From positions 989,153 through 1,053,152 of the forward strand of contig OZ250185.1 in assembly GCA_965238265.1 (NCBI GenBank): 64,000 nt of DNA, in the 5' to 3' direction. Of this stretch, positions 5,159 to 22,276 are shown one piece after another. Made by a program: the position numbers and the translations under genes. A model generated the notes under the pieces. The model worked only from the letters and a program-made list of their open reading frames with translations, made no database searches and had not been told where the DNA came from. This DNA comes from Chloroflexota bacterium. GTDB lineage: Bacteria > Chloroflexota > UBA11872 > UBA12225 > JAJDUF01. The stretch's first letter is position 1. Each line of letters opens with the position of its first letter.

Positions 5159-6730
5159 CTACCTCCTTCTTGGGGGGAATAGCTCTGGGAATCCGTCTTT
5201 TGGCCCACGGATTCGCCCCTCGAATACGCTGTCGGCACGTACCCTAGCCCGGTAGCGTTGGATGGCCGGACAGGGCAGGGAATCCTCAGCATCCCGGAGA
5301 ATCCGCCGGGCGTGGTCTATCACGCCGTCCTTATCATCGTTCTTCAGCCAGCGGTGGCGAATACCCTTCCGCTCGGACTCGGCGGCCTCGAACTCCGTTT
5401 GCAGGTGATGGAAGAAGTCACGGTCAACGATCTCGTCGAGCTTATTGGCCCAGGGGTTGGCACGGTCACGCTGTTCGTCTCCGACGCCCTCGGTCTTGCC
5501 GCCCGCGGCGAAGGTCCAGATAGCATGTCGCAAGATGCGCTGCACTTTGCGAACATCCTCGACGCGTTCGCTCGCGATCCGGCCTAGTTCTTCGAGTCCA
5601 TCGGCGCGGCTGATAATCGGTATCACCTTCCCCTTGAACGGGATGATCCGCTCGTGATAGCCCTCGGTCTTGCCTTGACCGCGCACCATTCCGCGCGCGA
5701 CCAGCAGCATGTCCTGCGGCGAGCGGCGCTCGGCAGCGGTCAGCCTGAACAGAGGCGGCGCTTGCCAGTCGGTGGAGAGGTAGTCAACGGTTTTCTTGTA
5801 GGTGAAGCCGCCGGTGGGCAGGGTCAGCGACTTGCTCTCCTTCCTGTTGACGGGTGTCCAGGGGTCGCCGCTGAGGCCCTTCAACGCTTTGGCCTCGATG
5901 CGGGCCGCTTTGGAGGTAGCGCGGATGACGCTCACCCTTCCAATCGGATCGGCTTGCAACCGGATACGTCGGCAAATCTCGATATAGAAGGGATCGAGGT
6001 CGCTGAGGAGCAAGGCCTCAGCCTTTGTCCCATCCCAAGCCTTTGTCCACAGCAGTTGGAATCCGCCATCGCGCGTGAGGTCAAGGTCGAGGATGTTTTC
6101 GCGTTGCTCCAACAGCGCCCCAATGTCGCGGCGCACGTGAACCCCCGGCCGCACGGACGGGGTGAGGGTGAAGGCCGGCCGGCACCCCAACCCGCCGTTC
6201 ATGCGGGAAATCCCGTAGTTGCCCGCGCCGCCAAAGCCCTCCGTGGTTTGGAGCGTAATCAGCGCGAATAGCCAGTCGTTGATTGTGGCCGCCGACGCGA
6301 CGGCCGATTTGAGGTCGTGGTTTTTCGACGTGACCAGCATGTCTAGCTCGTCGGGCGTCTCGACCGTGCTCTTGTACTCGGCGAGCTTGCTCGGCGCGGA
6401 GGCCGGCGGCTGCATGAAGGCTGGCTCGCGGATGTCCGCGACGACCAGCTGCCACGGCTCGTCATCGGGATAGTCGGGTGTGAGGCCGCGAATGAGGTCC
6501 CGCCACTCCTCGGCAGCGGCCGGCGGCTCGCTAAGGCCGGCGCGGTGGAGCGACATGGCGCCGAGCTGGACGAGGAAGGCGTGCCAGGCGTGGCGCTGGT
6601 GCGGCCGCAGCACCGGGAAGCTGTCTACCCTGTCCGCCATCAGCGCGGCATAGACCTGCGGCAGCGTGGCCGCGACCGTTCCGTCGGCGGTGTTCATGTT
6701 GATGAGGGGTTCTGTGAGTAGGTTGAACAT
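5159..6730 (-). CDS. cse1: Cse1 (CasA, Cas8e) Cascade large subunit
   Basis: 523-aa ORF (MFNLLTEPLINMNTADGTVAATLPQVYAALMADRVDSFPVLRPHQRHAWHAFLVQL...) with the conserved Cse1 N-terminal motif. Confidence 0.88.
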   Translation of the reverse strand: MFNLLTEPLINMNTADGTVAATLPQVYAALMADRVDSFPVLRPHQRHAWHAFLVQLGAMSLHRAGLSEPPAAAEEWRDLIRGLTPDYPDDEPWQLVVADIREPAFMQPPASAPSKLAEYKSTVETPDELDMLVTSKNHDLKSAVASAATINDWLFALITLQTTEGFGGAGNYGISRMNGGLGCRPAFTLTPSVRPGVHVRRDIGALLEQRENILDLDLTRDGGFQLLWTKAWDGTKAEALLLSDLDPFYIEICRRIRLQADPIGRVSVIRATSKAARIEAKALKGLSGDPWTPVNRKESKSLTLPTGGFTYKKTVDYLSTDWQAPPLFRLTAAERRSPQDMLLVARGMVRGQGKTEGYHERIIPFKGKVIPIISRADGLEELGRIASERVEDVRKVQRILRHAIWTFAAGGKTEGVGDEQRDRANPWANKLDEIVDRDFFHHLQTEFEAAESERKGIRHRWLKNDDKDGVIDHARRILRDAEDSLPCPAIQRYRARVRADSVFEGRIRGPKDGFPELFPPRRR

Positions 6731-7004
6731 GGTTGTCGTCCTTGCTATGGGGTATCCTTAACTAGAACGGATGTCCAGAAGCGAGGTTGTGCAACTACAC
6801 GCTAACGGGGATTGGGCAACTCATGCACCGGCTTGTCGTCCATGGTTACTTGCGCTCCGGTCCCATCCCGGCCCGGAGCGACCACTACCTGAAACAGCAC
6901 ATCCTCAGTGATGACCGAGACGCATAGGGATTTACTTACTTGAGTGACCAGCCGAAGGTCATCCAAACTGGTACAATCGGACGGCCACAGGCCATAGGGA
7001 TAAG

Positions 7005-7087
7005 TGCGGTAGGTGGGACTCGAACTCACACGGCCACAGGCCACGTAGCTCCTGACTACGCGCGTCTACCAATTCCGCCACTACCGC
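7005..7087 (-). tRNA. tRNA-Leu-like class II tRNA sequence (possibly a pseudo-tRNA or att remnant). It has a 7-bp acceptor stem (GCGGTAG / CTACCGC), a Leu-type D-arm (GGCGGAATTGGTAGAC), a long variable arm and a T-loop (GTTCGAGTCC). The anticodon loop reads TCAGGAG, one nucleotide short of canonical UUCAGGU. The T-stem has one mismatch and no CCA is encoded.
   Basis: By-eye fold of the reverse complement of 7005-7087. The sequence resembles E. coli tRNA-Leu(CAG) through the D-arm. No tRNAscan was run. Confidence 0.4.
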
Positions 7088-7173
7088 GCGAACTCCCTAA
7101 CGTCGGAATCCTTCATTGCCCTTCAAAGGTTCATTGTATAGAATGGGAGCGCGATGTGTCAAGCACTCCCACT

Positions 7174-7266
7174 GGTTCCCCGCAGACAGACGCGGGGGTA
7201 GACCACTTCGTAGGGCGATGCTCACACATCGCACATTGGTTCCCCCGCACACGCGGGGTTGCGGGC
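7174..7266 (+). CRISPR. Degenerate mini-CRISPR of two decayed I-E repeats in plus-strand canonical orientation, opposite to the main array. The repeats are GGTTCCCCGCAGACAGACGCGGGGGTAGACC and GGTTCCCCCGCACACGCGGGGTTGCGGGC. They are separated by a ~33-nt spacer-like segment and preceded by an AT-richer leader-like stretch (ttcattgtatagaatgg).
   Basis: Both copies match the array repeat (GGTTCCCCCGCACACGCGGGGATAGACC) at about 80-90%, and their ~64-nt spacing is close to the 61-nt array period. They sit in the cas3-cse1 intergenic region. Confidence 0.5.
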
Positions 7267-7282
7267 GCCGGGGCTGTGCCGG

Positions 7283-9928
7283 CTAGAGTCGGCGCAGCCC
7301 CCGGCGGTCGTAGCGGCAGCGTCGCTCGCCAAGGGGGAACTCGAATCCGTCACCGTCCGGCGACGGTACTACCGACTCTGGTTCCTTACCGGACGGCAGC
7401 CAGTCCATCCGCAACGCCAACTTGTCAATCTGCTGCGAGCTGTCGAACGGGCTGGGCTGCGGGGGATCGAGGATTACGTCTAGCCGGTCGTCGCCGAGGC
7501 GCGTGCGTATCCGCTCCTCCTTGCCTGCAAAGGCGATGCCCTGATCGAGGAAAGTCTTGCAGCGCTCAATGACGACATGCTGGCCAGTGACGTTGTCCGC
7601 GATTCTCGCGCCCTCGACCTCGTTTGCATGGACAATCCAGTCCTCGCCCATTCCCCGCGTAATGGCTTTCAGCGCGCCCGGATGCGTGGCCCGCTCCACC
7701 AGCCGCCGGTTCATCTCCGGGATGCGCCACTCGGGATATTCGTCAATCAGCCGCCGCGTCGCTTCCAGTATCCGCAAGTCCTCGTACACATGGCCGTGTG
7801 GCCCCAAGCCGTTCGCGTTCGGCGTGCGCTCCAGCAATGGGGCGAGGTCGTTGTCCGGCGGCGTCAGGACGGTGCAGGCGGGCGTCGTATGGCCGGCCGG
7901 CCGGTCGTGGTGCTCGTGCCGATGGAGGCGGCCGATGCGCTGGAGCAGCACGTCCGCCGGGCAGAGGTCGGTAATCAGCAGGTCCGCGTCAATATCCAGC
8001 GACTGCTCCAGCGTTTGCGTGCCGACGACGATATGTCCACCGCCGGGCGGCTGTTTGCCAAGCTGCCGTTCCACCTCCTCATCCAGCAACCGGCGGTCCG
8101 CGGCGGCGAACCGGCCATGATGCAGCGTTGGCTTGCCGCAGACGGTGAACAGCAGCCCGGCGTCGGCGGGGCCGGCCAGCTCTTCTATCGCTTGCTGGGT
8201 ATTGATGGCGTAGTCAACGGTGTTGCGAACCACCAGGACCTTTGCACCGGCACGGGCGGCCGTCAAGGCGCGGTGGGCGGTGTCGTCGAAGTCGTGCATC
8301 CTGGAAACCGCCGTGATATGGACGCGCTTGCGCTGGTCGTTCTCGTTGGCCGCGAGGACCGCTTCACGGCCGTCTCCCAGTGTGGTGACCGCCGGGTATG
8401 CGGTGTTGATCGCGTCATCCAGCGAGAGGGACGGGGCCTCGCTGGTGCGGCGCGGCCGGAAGAGCCAGCGCAAGCGGGCCGCCGAGCCGAGCGTGGCGGA
8501 CATGAGCAAGGCGTAGCCGCCGGCGCCGATGTGGGCAGCGAGCAATTGCTCCAGAATGGCGCTCATGTAGGTGTCGGAAGCGTGAACCTCGTCTACGACC
8601 AAGAGATTGCGCGCCAGGCACGCGGCCCGCATATGGGCGTTCTTGACTTGGAGCGCGCCCAGCATCGCCTGGTCTACGGTGCCGACGGCGATCTGGGCAG
8701 CGAGGAACCGCTTGGGGTTCTCGGCAGCCCACGGTCTGTCGCGGTTGTAGTCCGGCAATTCCACGCCGGCGGCATCCGCGTCAGGTTCGTAGCCGGGGAC
8801 GGCGAGCACCACGGGCGGCCTGTGCTGTGGCAGCAGCTTGCCGATGAAGCGCTTGACGCGCCCGTGGATCTGGACGGCGGCCGCTCGCGTGGGCAGGGCG
8901 AAGTAGAGGCCGTCCACCAACTGTCGCTCGTACATCTTGGCAAAGCGCCAGAGCGCGGCCTCCGTCTTGCCGGAGCCGGTTTCGGACTCGATGATGACCA
9001 GCTGCTGATCCAGCGGCGTGCGCTGTGCAGTCGCTTGGATGGCGTTCGGCGTGGGTGAACCGGGTATGTCGAACAGCTCTCCGAACTCCGGTACGCGAGT
9101 AAAGCCGTTCCGCTGACCGAGTAAGTCCAGCCCTATCGCGCCGATGGCCTGCTTCGCCTGTCGCTGGGCCGCCTCGAAGTAGTCGTCCCGGTGTTCGTCA
9201 ACAAACGGGAACCAGTCCTCGTTGGAGCCAATCCAGTCGGCCCAGTTGCACAGTCCCAGGAACATGTGCTGGAAGGCGGGAGCGGACGGCAGTGGCGGGG
9301 CACCAGAGTCGAACGCCGCCGGGAACCATTGGCGCACCAGCTTGCCGATCCGCGCGACGCAGCGGCGCGGGTGAAGCTCGCCAAAGGAGCACCAGACGCG
9401 CGCGTTCTCCGACCGGCTGTCATGCAGATTCAGCGGCTCACCGTGATGCGACAGCGCCGCGACGAATAACGCACACGCGGTCACGCCGCCATCGCTATCC
9501 CAGGACAGAACGTCATCATCCCATCCCAGCGCCTCGAAGAACCACGCGGCAGTTTCCCCGTCCCTGCCAGTAAGCACGGGTACTAGGTCTGCCGTGTGTC
9601 CGGTGCGCGGTGGTTTCCTCTTGTTCGACAGGTCTTCCGGGCGCCAGATTCGCGCCTGGAAGCCGACGTTTACCTTGCCGATATCGTGCAGGGCAGCGAA
9701 GACAGCCAGACGCGCAGCGGTTGCGTCGTCGAGGTGGTCGAAACCAGCGGTCCAGGCCAGCCGGTTCCGGATGATCGGTTGGGCCAGCAGTGCCTCGAAG
9801 CAGGCGCCGACATCGGCAAGGTGGTACTCGAGCAGGTGAATGTCCTCCGGACCCCGTTGCCGGCCAGGGGCCGCCTTGGCCCAGAACAGCCTGGTGTAGG
9901 CCGGTGTGCCCTCTACCCGGCCGACCAC
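7283..9928 (-). CDS. cas3: Cas3 HD-nuclease / SF2 helicase (type I-E). A GTG start is predicted at 9928, overlapping the vapC stop.
   Basis: The 881-aa ORF has an N-terminal HD domain (...HLLEYHLADVGACFEALL..., HD motifs), helicase motifs (GSGKTEAAL Walker A, DEVH-type motif II) and a C-terminal domain. Confidence 0.88.
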   Translation of the reverse strand: MVGRVEGTPAYTRLFWAKAAPGRQRGPEDIHLLEYHLADVGACFEALLAQPIIRNRLAWTAGFDHLDDATAARLAVFAALHDIGKVNVGFQARIWRPEDLSNKRKPPRTGHTADLVPVLTGRDGETAAWFFEALGWDDDVLSWDSDGGVTACALFVAALSHHGEPLNLHDSRSENARVWCSFGELHPRRCVARIGKLVRQWFPAAFDSGAPPLPSAPAFQHMFLGLCNWADWIGSNEDWFPFVDEHRDDYFEAAQRQAKQAIGAIGLDLLGQRNGFTRVPEFGELFDIPGSPTPNAIQATAQRTPLDQQLVIIESETGSGKTEAALWRFAKMYERQLVDGLYFALPTRAAAVQIHGRVKRFIGKLLPQHRPPVVLAVPGYEPDADAAGVELPDYNRDRPWAAENPKRFLAAQIAVGTVDQAMLGALQVKNAHMRAACLARNLLVVDEVHASDTYMSAILEQLLAAHIGAGGYALLMSATLGSAARLRWLFRPRRTSEAPSLSLDDAINTAYPAVTTLGDGREAVLAANENDQRKRVHITAVSRMHDFDDTAHRALTAARAGAKVLVVRNTVDYAINTQQAIEELAGPADAGLLFTVCGKPTLHHGRFAAADRRLLDEEVERQLGKQPPGGGHIVVGTQTLEQSLDIDADLLITDLCPADVLLQRIGRLHRHEHHDRPAGHTTPACTVLTPPDNDLAPLLERTPNANGLGPHGHVYEDLRILEATRRLIDEYPEWRIPEMNRRLVERATHPGALKAITRGMGEDWIVHANEVEGARIADNVTGQHVVIERCKTFLDQGIAFAGKEERIRTRLGDDRLDVILDPPQPSPFDSSQQIDKLALRMDWLPSGKEPESVVPSPDGDGFEFPLGERRCRYDRRGLRRL

Positions 9929-12707: not shown

Positions 12708-15844
<3,137 letters not shown>

Positions 15845-15925: not shown

Positions 15926-16306
15926 TCACGGTGCCGCTGAACGCTCTTCAATGATGACTTCGCCGTCGGCCCATGTTTCCAGCGTTACGCTACTGTCCCA
16001 GAGCAGATCCATTCCAAGCAGCGGGACACTATCCGATTGCAGCACCAGCGCATCAGCCAAGCGTCCGTGCCAGGATACCGTAGCACGGTAGGTATTGAAT
16101 TCGAATGGCTCCCCATTGGCCAACTCGAAGATTCGATAACCTGCCGAAGGAAGTCCCAACCGCCGAATGGCATCCGGGGGTAGTGTCAAGTAGCCGGTGA
16201 ATCCGGTGTCCAAGACGACCTCCAATTCTTGGAGGCGGTCCTCGCTGTCCATAACGGCTAAGGTAATCAAGGCTTGTTGGTACTGGTTTACTTTTCCCCT
16301 AATCAT
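15926..16306 (-). CDS. Retropepsin-like (clan AA) aspartic protease with a DTGF motif (VLDTGFTGYL)
   Basis: 126-aa ORF with a single D-T-G active-site motif followed by F, the size expected of a homodimeric retropepsin. Its ATGA start overlaps the stop of the upstream small ORF. Local GC is about 52-54%. Confidence 0.65.
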   Translation of the reverse strand: MIRGKVNQYQQALITLAVMDSEDRLQELEVVLDTGFTGYLTLPPDAIRRLGLPSAGYRIFELANGEPFEFNTYRATVSWHGRLADALVLQSDSVPLLGMDLLWDSSVTLETWADGEVIIEERSAAP

Positions 16307-16572
16307 GGCTTGAACGTCAAGCTCCCGCCGCCCATGCTGTAGGCAGCGCGATAACCGACCCGCAGTCCATAGATGACGGCATCCGACCGCCGTTGCTGCA
16401 ATCGGCGCGTGGCTGTTGCGTCGTTGGCATCCAACTCGTAATCGCCGGTTTCGATGTCAATGACCACGAACTTGCCGTGTTCCTGCGGCTCCACCAAGCG
16501 GCGTATCTTTTCCCGGTAGATCGCCTCGCCGCGAGCGCATGCCTCCTTGGGGCTATAAGTCCGGGTTGTCAT
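16303..16572 (-). CDS. Small 89-aa protein of unknown function, translationally coupled to the aspartic protease
   Basis: An ORF with a 4-bp ATGA overlap onto the downstream protease gene. No fold was recognised by eye. Confidence 0.5.
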   Translation of the reverse strand: MTTRTYSPKEACARGEAIYREKIRRLVEPQEHGKFVVIDIETGDYELDANDATATRRLQQRRSDAVIYGLRVGYRAAYSMGGGSLTFKP

Positions 16573-16639: not shown

Positions 16640-16860
16640 TAGTTGTCAGACGGTCCGCTGCCGGGCCCCAGCGTCGGCCCGGCCGGGCGGGTCAGCCGGC
16701 GGAAGGAGCCATACAGCGCATCGGCGGGAGGTCCGCTCGGCGCCGGGGGCGTCGGGGGCGATGTCCGGCCCGTGCGCCACCCGCCAGCCGAGGGCGGCCA
16801 GCCAGTCAAGGGCGGCGGCCTCAACGTCGGCTTCGGTGAGGGTCATTGGCGCGTTCACTG
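16640..16860 (-). pseudogene. Decayed ~220-bp duplicate of the hsdR 5' end: about 85% identical to 15598-15850 with a ~60-bp internal deletion and frameshifts
   Basis: ORF 16646-16858 ([42 protein letters not shown]...) parallels the HsdR N-terminus, and the nucleotide alignment to 15598-15850 is visible by eye. Confidence 0.7.
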
Positions 16861-17745
16861 GTTTCTAGCCTTTGCCCACATCAGTGATGACCGTCGAAAG
16901 GCTGACATTTTGGCCGTGTACCGATAGGCATTAGGCGGTTCTAGGTGGGAATTCGAGAGGTGTTCGATCAAGGCACCATACAGAGCAGCCAAATGCGTAC
17001 CTGGTATCGAACCGCCTTCTGTCTCCGCGCCTTCGGCGAAGAACCAGTCATAATCCGATTGTGCAACTTCAACAGGATATTTGTGAATTGAGATGCCTTC
17101 CTGCCCATCCATTTTCCCGTAGCATATGATTCCTTTGTTCAAGAGCACCGACATATTAGGCAGCAAACTAGGATCAACCGACGAGAGAAGAGTCATCACT
17201 TTTCCGAATTCGAAATCGCCACCATCTATACATAGAAGAAATGCATATAGGCTGTTCAAATATTTGTTCGGGCTGGCTAGCACGATATCATTCATTGATG
17301 TGGAGTCCTTAAGTCCTCCATGGAAGGTGTTTTCTACAAGAGGTCTATCCATTCCAGAAATCTGTTGCAAAACGTCATGCAGTTTCTCATAATAACGTTC
17401 GGACTGATAATAGGTTGATTTCACCTCACCGATTGCATATACGGAGGTTACGGGTACGTACTCGGTGCCATCTTTGGTAGTCAGCAACGACGGGAGGCTG
17501 AAATTGTCGGCGATGATTACATCCAATTGCGGGCTGACCAGATTGCTTGAATCGATGAGGTGACCGCTTGTAACATAGTAACGAGGCGGCAACATACGTT
17601 TCAAGTAGTCACGAACCGATTGTTCAACCTGGTTTCCAGCCGCTCTAATGTCTGTGGGGTGAATTCGAATGGCCTCCTCGCGTGCTCGCTGTAGGGCTTC
17701 CGCATCCGATTTGAAGATTCCTGCGAGGTTTAGGGTACTTGGCAT
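16855..17745 (-). CDS. Hypothetical 296-aa protein with a candidate PD-(D/E)xK nuclease motif (QLDVIIAD ... YAIGEVKST). It lies between hsdS and the hsdR remnant, and its GC (~48%) is well below that of its neighbours.
   Basis: The motif spacing (D ~30 aa before E-x-K) is consistent with a restriction-endonuclease-like fold. The composition shift is visible by eye, and no other homology was recognised. Confidence 0.45.
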
Positions 17746-17770: not shown

Positions 17771-19375
17771 TCACAATGCCCCCACCTCACCCGACACCAG
17801 CCTCGGCAACAGCGCATCCCGCAGGTCGGCCAGGGTGCGTGATTCCGTTTTGGTTGACTCCATCTTGTCGAGGATGGAGCCAGCACTCATGGAAAACCAG
17901 TCCAACACGTCAGTTCCAGCAGTGGGAATTGCTACTTCAGTTTCACTAACGACCTCTGGACGAACCGCCGGATATGCTGCGCCATCCGCTCGGTGAGCCA
18001 GCCACTCAATATTGTCTGGGGCTGTCGCTGCAAGATATACCAACTCCCGGAACCGTGGGTTCAAAGGCCGAAGCACGGCGAATCCGGTGCTTCCCGTCAG
18101 ACCATCGTTTCCTATAAGTGAGTAAGAACCGTTGCCCGGTCGAACTGTCCCAACTATGGTGTCTCCAGAGCGAAGGGCCCGTTTTGCCCTACTAGGGGCA
18201 TCCTTCCAAGAAAAATGTTGCGTGGATTCGATTACTCCCCACTTTGTGTTCGCCAAGTCAACGTATTCGATATCTGTGGGGCTATTCGTTCTGGACCAAG
18301 ACTCAGGGTTGAGATTCGAAAACTCCCCGACCGCCTTCACCTCCCACCCCGCCGGTATCTCCCCCAGCTCCGAGGCCACCAGGCGCTCCGGGAACAGCGC
18401 CCACAGCTCCGGCGGCAGGTACGGCGCGCGACCGGCCAGCTTGGCGCGCGTGGGGCCGAAGTCCACGAACCAGTCCTGGAAGAGGGCGCGGGCCATGGCC
18501 TCCAGCGTCTCGTTCATCCGGCGGTTGAGCGCGATCTTGTCGTCGAGGGTGCCGAGGACGTGGGCGATGGCGCGCTGTTCGGGGAGGGGAGGTGCAAGTA
18601 CACTCAACGACTGGATCATTGCCTTCGTAAGGGCGTTTCGAGTTCCGCCTGATCCTGCCCAAGACAAGAGCATGGTCTGTGTCTCAGGACAAGCGAGGAA
18701 ATAGCGCAGGAAGCGCGAGTCTAACTGGTTTGGGTCTGTCCGAATGATAGCGACGTGCTGGTTCACCCGTGCCGGAAGCACTCCGGGATCAACCTGGCAC
18801 ACACGCGCCACCGAATCGCCGGTAATGTTCAGTAGCACATCATCTGGAAAGACCTCGACGTTCCGCAGGCCGTGCGCCTGTTCATCACTGATATAGGCCA
18901 ACCCCTCGTGGCTGAACCCAGCATTGTAGACGTTCTGGCTACGAATCAATGCGTAGGGTCCGTCTTCCAGGTAGACATCCCGGCCCCCTCGTGGCGTGGC
19001 TCCACTGCCAATTTTGGTGCAGGCATCTCCAAGCACTATTTCCCGCCACTCGCTCGCCGCTGCCGATTGCTCGTCCGTGCCTTGCTGCAACACTACGTAG
19101 TCGCGCTCTATCACCGCCCGGAAGCGCTCGGGGATCGTGTGCCAGTCGTGTACGTCCACCCGCATGGGCAGGTCCGATTCCTCAAAGGCTTCCTTCAGCC
19201 GACCGAGTACTCCCCACTCCAGCGGTCCCCCGCCGACAACGGCCAGGTCCAGGTCGGAGTAGTCCTTCGCGGTCCAAGTCGCACGGGAACCGAAGGCGCG
19301 TATCTCGCACGCCGGCACGTGCTCCGCCAGGATGCGCCGGACCGTGCCGAGGTGGTGCGGGTTGAGGTCAATCAT
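17771..19375 (-). CDS. hsdS: In-frame fusion of a minimal nucleotidyltransferase (MNT, residues 1-~105; GSRATWTAKDYSDLDLAVV) to a type I specificity subunit HsdS (residues ~112-534, two target-recognition domains)
   Basis: A single 534-aa ORF. The N-terminus has the GS-x9-DxD nucleotidyltransferase motif. From SEWREIVLGDACTKIGSGATP onwards it is a canonical HsdS with central and C-terminal conserved helices (LPEQRAIAHVLGTLDDKIALN...). No ATG separates the two parts. Confidence 0.75.
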   Translation of the reverse strand: MIDLNPHHLGTVRRILAEHVPACEIRAFGSRATWTAKDYSDLDLAVVGGGPLEWGVLGRLKEAFEESDLPMRVDVHDWHTIPERFRAVIERDYVVLQQGTDEQSAAASEWREIVLGDACTKIGSGATPRGGRDVYLEDGPYALIRSQNVYNAGFSHEGLAYISDEQAHGLRNVEVFPDDVLLNITGDSVARVCQVDPGVLPARVNQHVAIIRTDPNQLDSRFLRYFLACPETQTMLLSWAGSGGTRNALTKAMIQSLSVLAPPLPEQRAIAHVLGTLDDKIALNRRMNETLEAMARALFQDWFVDFGPTRAKLAGRAPYLPPELWALFPERLVASELGEIPAGWEVKAVGEFSNLNPESWSRTNSPTDIEYVDLANTKWGVIESTQHFSWKDAPSRAKRALRSGDTIVGTVRPGNGSYSLIGNDGLTGSTGFAVLRPLNPRFRELVYLAATAPDNIEWLAHRADGAAYPAVRPEVVSETEVAIPTAGTDVLDWFSMSAGSILDKMESTKTESRTLADLRDALLPRLVSGEVGAL

Positions 19376-19790
19376 TGCGCGCTTCCAACGCCGCCAGCAG
19401 CAGCCGCGCGTCGTGTACGAACTCCCTGGTGGCGCTATAGACCAGCGCGGCCTTCGCCTCGTCGTAGATGTGGGAGGTGACGTTCCTGGCTTCGTGATGC
19501 TGCATCCAGAGGTCTACGTCGGGAATGAGCCGATTTTCGGCCGCGAGGCGGAATAGCTGCCGCCGCGTGACGCCATCCGCGACGTCGGGGCCGACGTAGG
19601 TCCTCAACCAGCGCGCCATCAACTTCCAGGAAAGCTCGTAGGTGACCTCGAAGTTCTGTATAACGCCGGAGCGAATGCCGTTCCGCTCGACCTCGCTCAA
19701 CTCTCCCATGCGCGCGTCATTTTCGCTGACCGCCAGCAGGTCTGCGAGCGCTCTGATCGCGTTTCTCAGGTGGTCCAGCTCCAGTGGCAT
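19368..19790 (-). CDS. HEPN-domain protein (HI0074-like nucleotidyltransferase substrate-binding family; R-x4-HxY motif RNVTSHIY). It is the HEPN partner of the MNT fused to hsdS.
   Basis: 140-aa ORF whose stop overlaps the start of the MNT-hsdS ORF, and which carries the HEPN motif. Confidence 0.7.
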   Translation of the reverse strand: MPLELDHLRNAIRALADLLAVSENDARMGELSEVERNGIRSGVIQNFEVTYELSWKLMARWLRTYVGPDVADGVTRRQLFRLAAENRLIPDVDLWMQHHEARNVTSHIYDEAKAALVYSATREFVHDARLLLAALEARND

Positions 19791-19863
19791 GATCTTCCTC
19801 GTTACTCGCGGGCGTGCTCGTCCGCAACCCCCAGGCGTACCATGCTGATGTCAATGGCGCTGG

Positions 19864-20301
19864 TCATTCCCAAGTCTCCCCGGTCATCGTCTGGTACAGC
19901 CCAATGGCATCGTCAACAAAGTCATCCACCAGCGCCAGGGCTTGCTCCGCTTTTTCGCCGCTGTAGTCGTGGGTCGTGTCAATGCGAGCCTGTATGTATT
20001 CGTTCCATTGTGGGAAGGGAGACGAGAGCAGATTGTTCGCATCGGCCAAACGGAAGATGGGCCGGGGACTGCGGGGAGCTTCAGCAACGCCCAATTCTTC
20101 TTGCAGGTAGCGCCGGAGCACTTTATGCAGCGCATCGTAGCAGGTCTCGAACCGCTGAATCACCGATTCGGCCATTCCCTCATGGATAAATTGCGGCAGC
20201 GCCGGGTCAAGGTGTTTCCGATGCTCATGCTGCAATTCCAGGTTCTTGAGGGATTTTCTGAAGTTGCCGTAATCAATCATTGCCGTGCCCCGCTCACGCA
20301 C
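19864..20301 (-). CDS. HEPN-domain protein, second copy (R-x4-HxY motif RIDTTHDY)
   Basis: 145-aa ORF immediately downstream of the interrupted MNT at 20304-20656. Its GC is about 52%. Confidence 0.7.
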   Translation of the reverse strand: MRERGTAMIDYGNFRKSLKNLELQHEHRKHLDPALPQFIHEGMAESVIQRFETCYDALHKVLRRYLQEELGVAEAPRSPRPIFRLADANNLLSSPFPQWNEYIQARIDTTHDYSGEKAEQALALVDDFVDDAIGLYQTMTGETWE

Positions 20302-20303
20302 TA

Positions 20304-20656
20304 GAGCCTGCCCGTACTCAGCCGCACCAGGTCTGCCTCAATCTGGTCTCCGGCCTCATAAAGCGGTGTCCTAGTCGCCTCGACCGAGCGCCGGAAATAG
20401 GGATTCTTGATGGCCGAGCCGACCACCAAGTCCACCGTCCGGCCAAACAGCCGTTCCAGCGCTTCCCGCAGGCCGAAATACGTGTCGAAATACGCGCCGG
20501 TCGGCAGTGGCCGGAAGGTGACGACGAAGTCGAGGTCGCTGTGCCCCGGTCAGTACCGGCCGGTGGCGGCCGAGCCGAACAGGTCGAGCCGCCGGACCCG
20601 GTAGCGCCGGCAGAGCTGCTCCAGCTCGGCGGCGTGCTCCGCAATCACCGGGATCA
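20304..20656 (-). pseudogene. MNT-type nucleotidyltransferase (HEPN-cognate antitoxin family) interrupted by an in-frame TGA at 20550-20552 within the active-site region (LFGSAATGRY*PGHSDLDFVV)
   Basis: The reverse-complement translation runs in one frame from MIPVIAEHAAELEQLCRRYRVRRLDLFGSAATGRY, through a TGA, to PGHSDLDFVVTFRPL...GRL*. It ends 3 nt before the HEPN start. Confidence 0.65.
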
Positions 20657-20680
20657 TTGCGAGTGCTCCTCTCCCATCAG

Positions 20681-22276
<1,596 letters not shown>

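Follow-up and report, generated by a model that had tools for sequence, protein, structure and literature searches.

Organization of the restriction-modification locus

We analyzed a type I restriction-modification (RM) locus from a Chloroflexota bacterium, in which genes of HEPN/MNT toxin-antitoxin (TA) modules are found among the hsd genes and a minimal nucleotidyltransferase (MNT) domain is joined to the specificity subunit HsdS. The locus lies in a 64,000-nt stretch of contig OZ250185.1 (assembly GCA_965238265.1, positions 989,153 to 1,053,152 of the forward strand), referred to as the window, and coordinates are those of the window unless another locus is named. From translated open reading frames (ORFs) and Pfam matches, the order on the minus strand is hsdM, MNT*, HEPN1, HEPN2, MNT::HsdS, as in a first-pass annotation of this DNA; MNT* carries an in-frame TGA codon.

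All genes and relics described here are on the minus strand. The methyltransferase gene hsdM (20681–22276) encodes an intact subunit of 531 aa (Pfam HsdM_N and N6_Mtase, E 1e-105). MNT* (20301–20657) comprises 118 codons and was assigned by translation, Pfam and orthologue alignment. The first-pass annotation had located it correctly but one nucleotide short, i.e., it starts with the ATG at 20657 and not at 20656, which gives the wrong frame. Both HEPN genes belong to the HI0074 family and match PF08780: HEPN1 (19864–20280) encodes 138 aa counted from its ATG (6e-17), and HEPN2 (19368–19790) encodes a predicted RNase toxin of 140 aa (7e-32). MNT::HsdS follows as a single ORF of 534 aa (17771–19375).

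For comparison we used loci from related genomes. Over 12.5 kb, two independent metagenome assemblies, L001 (57x) and L002 (8x), match the window with about 99.96% identity. A sister genome, L004 (circular 4.26-Mb contig, 115x), shares 97.8% nucleotide identity over the locus, and L005 is more distant. Against L004 and L005, the ratio of nonsynonymous to synonymous substitutions (dN/dS) was 0.15–0.19 for hsdM.

The MNT domain is the N-terminal part of a complete HsdS

In the MNT::HsdS protein, Pfam Polbeta/NTP_transf_2 matched aa 11–95, followed by Methylase_S. The MNT domain (aa 1–100; 19076–19375) is of the HI0073 type and matched PDB entry 1NO5 with an E-value of 3.5e-24. It is connected via a flexible linker (aa 101–107; 19055–19075) to the HsdS portion (17771–19054), which PADLOC Specificity_I spans from aa 103 to 531 (E 8e-107). 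An AlphaFold2 model of the fusion, with a predicted local distance difference test (pLDDT) score of 87, contained a compact MNT domain (aa 1–97), the linker as a disordered segment with pLDDT below 50, and a complete HsdS. The latter has two target-recognition domains (TRDs) divided by two long conserved helices, at aa 264–304 and 490–528 of the model, and its Foldseek matches were the S subunits 1YF2 (E 4.5e-21), 2Y7C and 5YBB. The genomic context is also that of an S subunit: hsdM is intact, and hsdR is present, as a complete gene in L004 and frameshifted in the window lineage.

The MNT domain of the model superposed on HI0073 (1NO5) with a TM-score of 0.94 at 1.1 Å and 48% identity. TM-scores to the Legionella pneumophila MNT antitoxin structures 8XEO and 8XEH were 0.81–0.87, with 0.87 for 8XEO. 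All catalytic residues are in place, i.e., G29-S30, D41-x-D43 and V73-D74-V75, which is the GS-x10-DxD signature with a third acidic residue found in MNTs of type VII TA systems. These residues are invariant within the MNT subtype of the window. Across MNT subtypes G29, S30, D41, D43 and V73 are invariant, and G29, S30, D41 and D43 are so in an alignment of full-length fusions.

In the PADLOC profile PDLC03138 (Specificity_I, 485 positions), it is positions 1–105 that align to the MNT part of the protein. A library of profile models for defence systems hence already contains this architecture, unremarked.

The fusion is conserved across about ten phyla

We surveyed homologous loci in one genome per species. 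An alignment of 25 sequences representing all MNT subtypes was too diverse for a locus scan, which we repeated with the subtype of the window alone, one of at least five MNT subtypes that are fused to HsdS. This subtype is encoded in 255 species-representative genomes. In 63 of the best 80 loci, MNT and HsdS shared one frame; 15 were unfused and two were cut by a contig end. The unfused loci comprised ten free HEPN-MNT pairs outside RM loci, with MNT proteins of 100–110 aa, and five that were apparently broken or truncated. The MNT of this subtype is thus mostly not a stand-alone small antitoxin. L011 and L051, with separate MNT and HsdS ORFs, resemble broken fusions.

Homologue searches gave the same picture. 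Among the best 120 homologues of the 534-aa protein, 88 had 470–640 aa with the GS...DxD motif near the N-terminus, and the remainder were ordinary HsdS proteins of 416–477 aa starting about ten residues before the LGD motif. HMMER with the MNT domain alone found 1509 cluster representatives (E up to 1e-10), and just 17 of the best 147 were shorter than 125 aa. Hosts of the fusion were Chloroflexota (Dehalococcoidia, SAR202, Caldilineaceae), Poribacteria, Latescibacterota, Acidimicrobiia, Acidobacteriota, Nitrospirae, Deltaproteobacteria, Elusimicrobia, Spirochaetes and others, about ten phyla in all.

One MNT domain type precedes many different types of the first TRD. Linker lengths range between about 5 and about 40 residues and the sequences are unrelated, and all linkers are open and in frame. 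Because the in-frame fusion is conserved across phyla, it is not the product of a local stop-codon loss, which the first-pass annotation had offered as one of two explanations for a fusion that it had otherwise described correctly. Judged by this conservation and by the intact catalytic residues, the fusion is shown to be a genuine architecture under selection in many phyla.

It had been called non-standard, and we agree: we found no published description of an MNT-HsdS fusion, including in PMC3710099, PMC3632139 and PMC3506569, in a search that left papers in subscription journals largely outside. The MNT::HsdS architecture is apparently new to the literature, and the fusion proteins are currently annotated just as "restriction endonuclease subunit S".

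Several loci showed variant arrangements. In Caldilineaceae, L032 (7001–8884) encodes a 627-aa protein in which two different MNT domains stand in tandem before HsdS. In two Acidimicrobiia loci, L048 and L060 (about 5800–8600), the interval from hsdM to hsdR holds two complete modules one after the other, in the order HEPN, free MNT (146 aa), HEPN1-type gene, MNT::HsdS. Five Poribacteria loci (L047, L065, L068, L076, L082) encode MNT::HsdS with an intact catalytic motif and no PF08780 HEPN directly upstream. Four of these have a 426–586-aa protein between hsdM and the fusion, resembling a 581-aa gene product at the same position in L003 with Pfam domains SLFN_AlbA_2 and HATPase_c_4; in L065, hsdM directly overlaps the fusion. 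A 306-aa ORF without an assigned family precedes the fusion in L058.

HEPN2 is coupled to the fusion, HEPN1 is a leftover

The motifs of active HEPN toxins are present in both window proteins, RX4HXY as RIDTTHDY in HEPN1 and RNVTSHIY in HEPN2, and the Q..E metal site as IQRFE and IQNFE, respectively. Both sites are kept in the two proteins and in 65 of 69 homologues; for RX4HXY, this was the case in 45 of 49 HEPN2-type and in all 20 HEPN1-type sequences. The two types share just 33% identity. HEPN2 matched TIGR01987 above cut-off, and in the PDB it matched HI0074 (1JOG, 1.2e-14) and the L. pneumophila HEPN toxin (8XDJ, 1.8e-9).

HEPN2 is adjacent to, co-oriented with and translationally coupled to the fusion gene, which is the arrangement of type VII TA modules. 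Across the surveyed loci, the start of the fusion is nearly always overlapped by an HI0074-family HEPN gene with RX4HXY. The stop codon of HEPN2 overlaps the start of MNT::HsdS by 8 nt (ATGATTGA), and this overlap was found in 49 of 52 HEPN2-type loci. Free HEPN2-MNT pairs outside RM loci keep the same 8-nt overlap.

HEPN1 has a different history. Its homologues (84% identity in L005, 60% in L003 and L039) lie directly upstream of, and overlap, an MNT::hsdS gene, and a HEPN1-type gene abuts or overlaps MNT::hsdS in 16 further fused loci of the survey. In the window, HEPN1 and HEPN2 are separated by a 73-nt spacer containing a 22-codon relic ORF, MTSAIDISMVRLGVADEHARE* (19867–19802). Its codons 1–8, MTSAIDIS (19844–19867), correspond to the 5' end of a displaced, HEPN1-cognate MNT::hsdS gene (cf. 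VTVAIDLNP in L005 and MTGSIDLNP in L003), with the ATG overlapping the HEPN1 stop as ATGA. The remaining codons (MVRLGVADEHARE*, 19802–19843) are a 5'-end relic of an mntA gene of the type found 3' of hsdM in L006. There, from position 6538, hsdM is followed by MVPVIAENVRG* and then by HEPN2, and this stretch is homologous to the window relic. Since eight codons of the old fusion remain 3' of HEPN1 and its homologues overlap MNT::hsdS, HEPN1 is best read as a leftover toxin-type gene whose original MNT::HsdS partner has been replaced.

The MNT domain of the window is up to 79% identical to MNTs partnered with HEPN1-type proteins and 75–79% identical to most of those partnered with HEPN2. Fused MNT domains did not cluster by the type of their HEPN partner, with an identity of 0.67 within and 0.64 between types. 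It is plausible that the fused MNT cross-neutralises HEPN1, and this would account for HEPN1 being tolerated.

MNT* is an orphan antitoxin pseudogene

The TGA codon of MNT* (20552–20550) lies between the GS and DxD motifs (LFGSAATGRY*PGHSDLDFVV). With an X at the stop, the translation matched Pfam NTP_transf_2 (1.2e-13). Further matches were PADLOC PDC-S09 and, below cut-off, NCBIfam MntA_antitoxin. L001 and L002 carry the same TGA, together with an identical fusion protein, and differ from the window by a handful of single-nucleotide polymorphisms elsewhere. The codon had been rightly reported as an in-frame stop, and since it is present in both assemblies, which differ at other positions, we conclude that it is not a sequencing or assembly error, as had been considered. 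In L004 and L005 the gene encodes an intact protein of 118 aa with CGA (Arg36) at this position, the orthologues being 96% and 86% identical. Hence, a single C-to-T transition (CGA to TGA) was fixed in one lineage. An alignment of homologous loci, proposed earlier as a check on conservation, thus bore out the fusion and confined the stop codon to the window lineage.

Recoding of the codon as selenocysteine or by an alternative code was considered and rejected. HEPN1, HEPN2 and the fusion gene all end with TGA as an ordinary stop, at C-termini that match those of their homologues, so this genome does not recode TGA. Moreover, the orthologues have Arg rather than Cys, and 3' of the TGA we found neither a fold resembling a selenocysteine insertion sequence nor an unusual RNA fold, folding being no better than for shuffled sequences (z +0.94).

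MNT* is not related to HEPN1 as antitoxin to toxin. Immediately 3' of each of its closest homologues (102–103 aa; 87, 77 and 74% identity) lies an overlapping hepT gene of family PF01934 (DUF86), and in the related RM operons L030 and L023 such an mntA-hepT pair lies directly 3' of hsdM. DNA alignment of the window with L023, L030 and L003 identified a hepT relic at 20342–20359: homology to the mntA-hepT loci spans the 3' end of mntA and the first six hepT codons, then ends. These codons, ATGAGGCCGGAGACCAGA (MRPETR, i.e., the start codon and five more), overlap the mntA 3' end. L005 retains MRLETR, as in HepT of L023 (MRLETRKYLYD). The Leu-to-Pro change in the dead hepT frame also removed the mntA stop, which accounts for the 16-residue C-terminal extension of the 118-aa MNT forms. 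We conclude that hepT was deleted in the common ancestor of the window, L004 and L005.

Because its intact homologues pair with PF01934 HepT and only six hepT codons remain, MNT* is an orphan mntA pseudogene and not the antitoxin of HEPN1. It also lacks what defines an MntA/HepT module, its ORF being broken by the TGA and hepT being reduced to six codons. Between L004 and L005, dN/dS of the orphan mntA was 0.34 compared with 0.16 for hsdM and HEPN1. In decaying TA modules, loss of the toxin is expected before loss of the antitoxin. Decay followed this order here, with the hepT toxin deleted first and the orphan mntA then acquiring its TGA in the window lineage. The apparent paradox of an inactivated antitoxin beside an intact toxin, raised in the first-pass annotation, thereby dissolves: the cognate toxin was lost first, and the stop codon is ordinary pseudogenisation of an orphan antitoxin. 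This part of the locus is a clear example of TA decay, the toxin having gone first and the orphan antitoxin later.

Loss of hepT with mntA kept beside hsdM was seen repeatedly. A 55-aa hepT fragment is found in L003 and L039, and about five hepT codons remain in L010, followed by apparent hicA/hicB-type genes. In L006, just seven mntA codons are left. RM islands of this kind exchange TA cassettes fast.

A mosaic island with a broken hsdR

The window is a mosaic. Positions 22217–19846 (hsdM-mntA-HEPN1) are L005-like, with homology to L005 stopping at 19846, and positions 19844–19046 are L006-like. The tandem of HEPN1 and HEPN2 is limited to the window and L004 among 83 loci. An older HEPN1-MNT::hsdS cassette was displaced by one of L006 type, which brought in the mntA relic, HEPN2 and MNT::hsdS.

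The restriction gene hsdR (12708–15844) is a pseudogene. Compared with the intact 1048-aa gene of L004, it has a 10-bp deletion (GGCGGTACGA) between GGCGG repeats at about position 14941, which yields ORFs of 328 and 728 aa. The deletion is common to L001 and L002, the latter having in addition a 16-bp deletion and a GG insertion. With hsdR broken by this deletion, the RM system of the window lineage is at most a methyltransferase. The mntA nonsense codon likewise points to decay at this locus. The genes for HsdM, HEPN1, HEPN2 and the fusion are intact.

We hence think it likely that the region is a mosaic, partly decayed type I RM island, with HEPN2 followed by MNT::HsdS as its sole conserved and unusual unit, and with MNT*, HEPN1, the relics and the dead hsdR as leftovers of cassette turnover.

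Further genes surround this unit. Directly 3' of hsdS is a gene for a 296-aa DUF6602 protein (16855–17745), the N-terminus of which matched PADLOC models of PD-(D/E)xK/NucC nucleases (E 1e-22 to 1e-16). Since positions 17790–16735 are without a counterpart in L004, this gene is a lineage-specific insertion into the operon. A 70-aa ORF (16646–16858) duplicates the HsdR N-terminus about 0.8 kb upstream of the real hsdR start; an HsdR N-terminal fragment of 92 aa occurs similarly in L004, and the ORF is probably a scar of an earlier hsdR replacement. Between hsdS and hsdR lies an overlapping gene pair (15926–16572), conserved in L004. It encodes an 89-aa protein without a family match and a 126-aa clan AA (retropepsin-like) aspartic protease (TIGR03698 at 1e-12, below cut-off), and it is a possible two-gene module.

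In L001, where the flanks of the window locus can be followed, pairs of a FitA-like ribbon-helix-helix protein and a PIN protein (VapBC-type) lie on both sides (16785–17605 and 991–1672), and a Cas3 gene (HD and DEAD) lies on the hsdR side. Taken together, these surroundings resemble a defence island. Rfam at gathering thresholds found no match in the window, including no tRNA. Well away from the locus, ARAGORN called a tRNA-Pro of 84 nt (7004–7087; anticodon AGG), which is probably a false positive.

A probable type VII toxin-antitoxin pair tethered to HsdS

From family membership, conserved motifs, gene overlap and analogy with characterised systems, HEPN2 and MNT::HsdS most likely constitute an HI0074/HI0073-type type VII TA pair in which the antitoxin is tethered to HsdS. 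The L. pneumophila HEPN protein is a Mg-dependent RNase, and it is neutralised when a short MNT antitoxin without helix alpha4 AMPylates the RX4HXY residue Y105 (PMC11586414). By analogy with the systems of L. pneumophila, Shewanella and Aphanizomenon, the HsdS-borne MNT would AMPylate the RX4HXY tyrosine of HEPN and would thereby keep the HEPN RNase silent. As EcoKI shows, RM function can persist when HsdS carries a fusion at its N-terminus (PMC3510504). Neutralisation would then depend on how much HsdS and restriction complex is present and on whether they are intact. As one outcome, hsdS would become addictive; as the other, the pair would act as a PrrC-like back-up, set off by loss of the restriction complex or an attack on it.

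HEPN/MNT TA modules and type I restriction enzymes have hitherto been studied separately. A covalent link between the enzymatic antitoxin and the specificity subunit that is selected in hundreds of species implies that DNA-level immunity is coupled to an RNA-level suicide or dormancy effector. The idea of an immunity-suicide coupling dates from 2012–2013 (PMC3506569, PMC3710099), with PrrC as the main precedent cited there.

Some points weigh against the tethered TA pair. The toxicity of HEPN2, its AMPylation by the fused MNT and the association of HEPN with an M2S1 complex are all predictions from sequence and analogy. Seven of the 66 fused loci, mostly from Poribacteria, have no PF08780 HEPN directly upstream and still an intact MNT motif, so that the MNT domain may have a role independent of HEPN. 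The tolerance of HEPN1 is a further weak point, as the lack of MNT clustering by partner makes cross-neutralisation plausible and no more. In addition, the dN/dS of mntA is relaxed rather than neutral, and this gene may have had a function before the nonsense mutation. Finally, free HsdS may additionally be produced from an internal GTG or TTG.

The back-up function can be extended to a guard device, which we regard as possible but rather unlikely. Here, HEPN would stay modified as long as HsdS and the complex are intact, and the RNase would be freed by anti-restriction proteins of phages (DNA mimics, Stp-like peptides), by proteolysis or when hsdS is lost; its release would abort infection or kill segregants. 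If true, this would be a PrrC-like second line of defence made from a type VII TA module and spread over at least ten phyla.

HEPN and MNT::HsdS might instead be a domesticated two-protein nucleotidyltransferase that modifies an RM subunit, DNA ends or a phage component and so regulates restriction. The catalytic residues retained in some fused loci without an adjacent HEPN would fit this, as would the NCBIfam name of the HEPN family, "nucleotidyltransferase substrate-binding subunit", and the variety of TRDs found with the fusion, which suggests that its role concerns the RM complex itself. We nevertheless consider it improbable. Both hallmarks of active HEPN toxins open to AMPylation, the RX4HXY tyrosine and the Q..E metal site, are conserved, among characterised homologues the closest is a genuine toxin (PMC11586414), and the free HEPN2-MNT pairs with their 8-nt overlap lie outside RM loci like TA modules.

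We give little credence to a fusion that is only apparent, with HsdS translated from an internal start and an open frame across the junction that means nothing. In the window, in-frame GTG or TTG codons are indeed present near the junction (aa 88, 95, 96 and 114), and standard HsdS proteins start 8–12 residues before the LGD motif. In the 66 fused loci, none had an ATG with a Shine-Dalgarno-like sequence at the junction, and a start codon of any kind with a strong Shine-Dalgarno sequence was found in just six; an HsdS start with its own ribosome-binding site, the objection anticipated at the outset, is thus not conserved. Without selection, about two-thirds of junctions would be expected to be out of frame or interrupted, but 63 of 80 loci had one open frame through varied linkers. 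The separate ORFs of L011 and L051, which look like broken fusions, argue likewise.

The two mirror-image HEPN/MNT pairs of the first-pass annotation, with MNT* as the antitoxin of HEPN1 and its loss offset by cross-neutralisation through the second MNT or by read-through of the TGA, are very doubtful. MNT* and HEPN1 are adjacent, 20 nt apart and in the canonical MNT-then-HEPN order, which L004 and L005 keep, and the mntA dN/dS suggests residual constraint. The TGA also stands in the context UGA-C, which is a leaky stop context. Yet the reading is largely refuted by the six hepT codons at the 3' end of MNT*. Close intact homologues of MNT* pair with PF01934 HepT in every case and never with PF08780. 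At other loci, the gene overlapped by a HEPN1-type gene at its 3' end is an MNT::hsdS, and the window still has eight codons of such a fusion immediately 3' of HEPN1. The orthologous codon is CGA for Arg.

That the TGA or the fusion is a sequencing or assembly artefact, or the TGA recoded, has nothing but a-priori possibility in its favour and is practically negligible, given three assemblies that share both features while differing at other polymorphisms, TGA stops at conserved C-termini, Arg instead of Cys in orthologues and RNA that folds no better than shuffled sequence.

Comparison with known systems

The predicted HEPN2-MNT::HsdS pair is closest to HI0074/HI0073 of Haemophilus influenzae and to the L. 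pneumophila HEPN-MNT type VII TA system (1JOG, 1NO5, 8XDJ, 8XEO, 8XEH; PMC11586414), which belong to the same families. Common features are a PF08780/TIGR01987 HEPN with RX4HXY and Q..E, a short MNT with GS-x10-DxD and without helix alpha4, and adjacent, overlapping genes; neutralisation by Tyr-AMPylation is predicted here. In contrast to these systems, the MNT of the window is the N-terminal domain of HsdS and not a free protein of about 100 aa, and the pair is placed between hsdM and hsdR.

With HepT/MntA of Shewanella oneidensis and Aphanizomenon flos-aquae (DUF86 HEPN), the locus shares an MNT* of the MntA lineage and the antitoxin-first gene order. Unlike in those modules, hepT is reduced to six codons and mntA has a nonsense codon and a 16-codon 3' extension, i.e., this module is dead.

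PrrC of EcoprrI, a HEPN anticodon nuclease that is kept latent through a type Ic RM complex, likewise has its HEPN gene within a type I hsd operon, and silencing of the RNase plausibly depends on the RM complex in both cases. In contrast to PrrC and RloC, HEPN1 and HEPN2 are single-domain proteins of 138–140 aa without an N-terminal ABC ATPase, so the resemblance is by context only. Moreover, PrrC binds the complex directly, whereas the coupling proposed here would act via an enzymatic antitoxin domain fused to HsdS. The R-M fusion partners of HEPN domains described by Anantharaman et al. (2013; PMC3710099) are nucleases, helicases and other ATPase subunits, and neither HsdS nor a specificity subunit is named anywhere in that text. 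The general HEPN-RM idea is also found in PMC3506569, and the HsdS fusion is not mentioned there.

The engineered HsdM-HsdS fusion of EcoKI (PMC3510504) is a counterpart on the RM side, as HsdS with a large N-terminal fusion still assembles a working RM enzyme. There, the fused partner is HsdM and the construct is artificial; here, HsdS is joined to the antitoxin domain of a TA system, in a natural protein that occurs widely.

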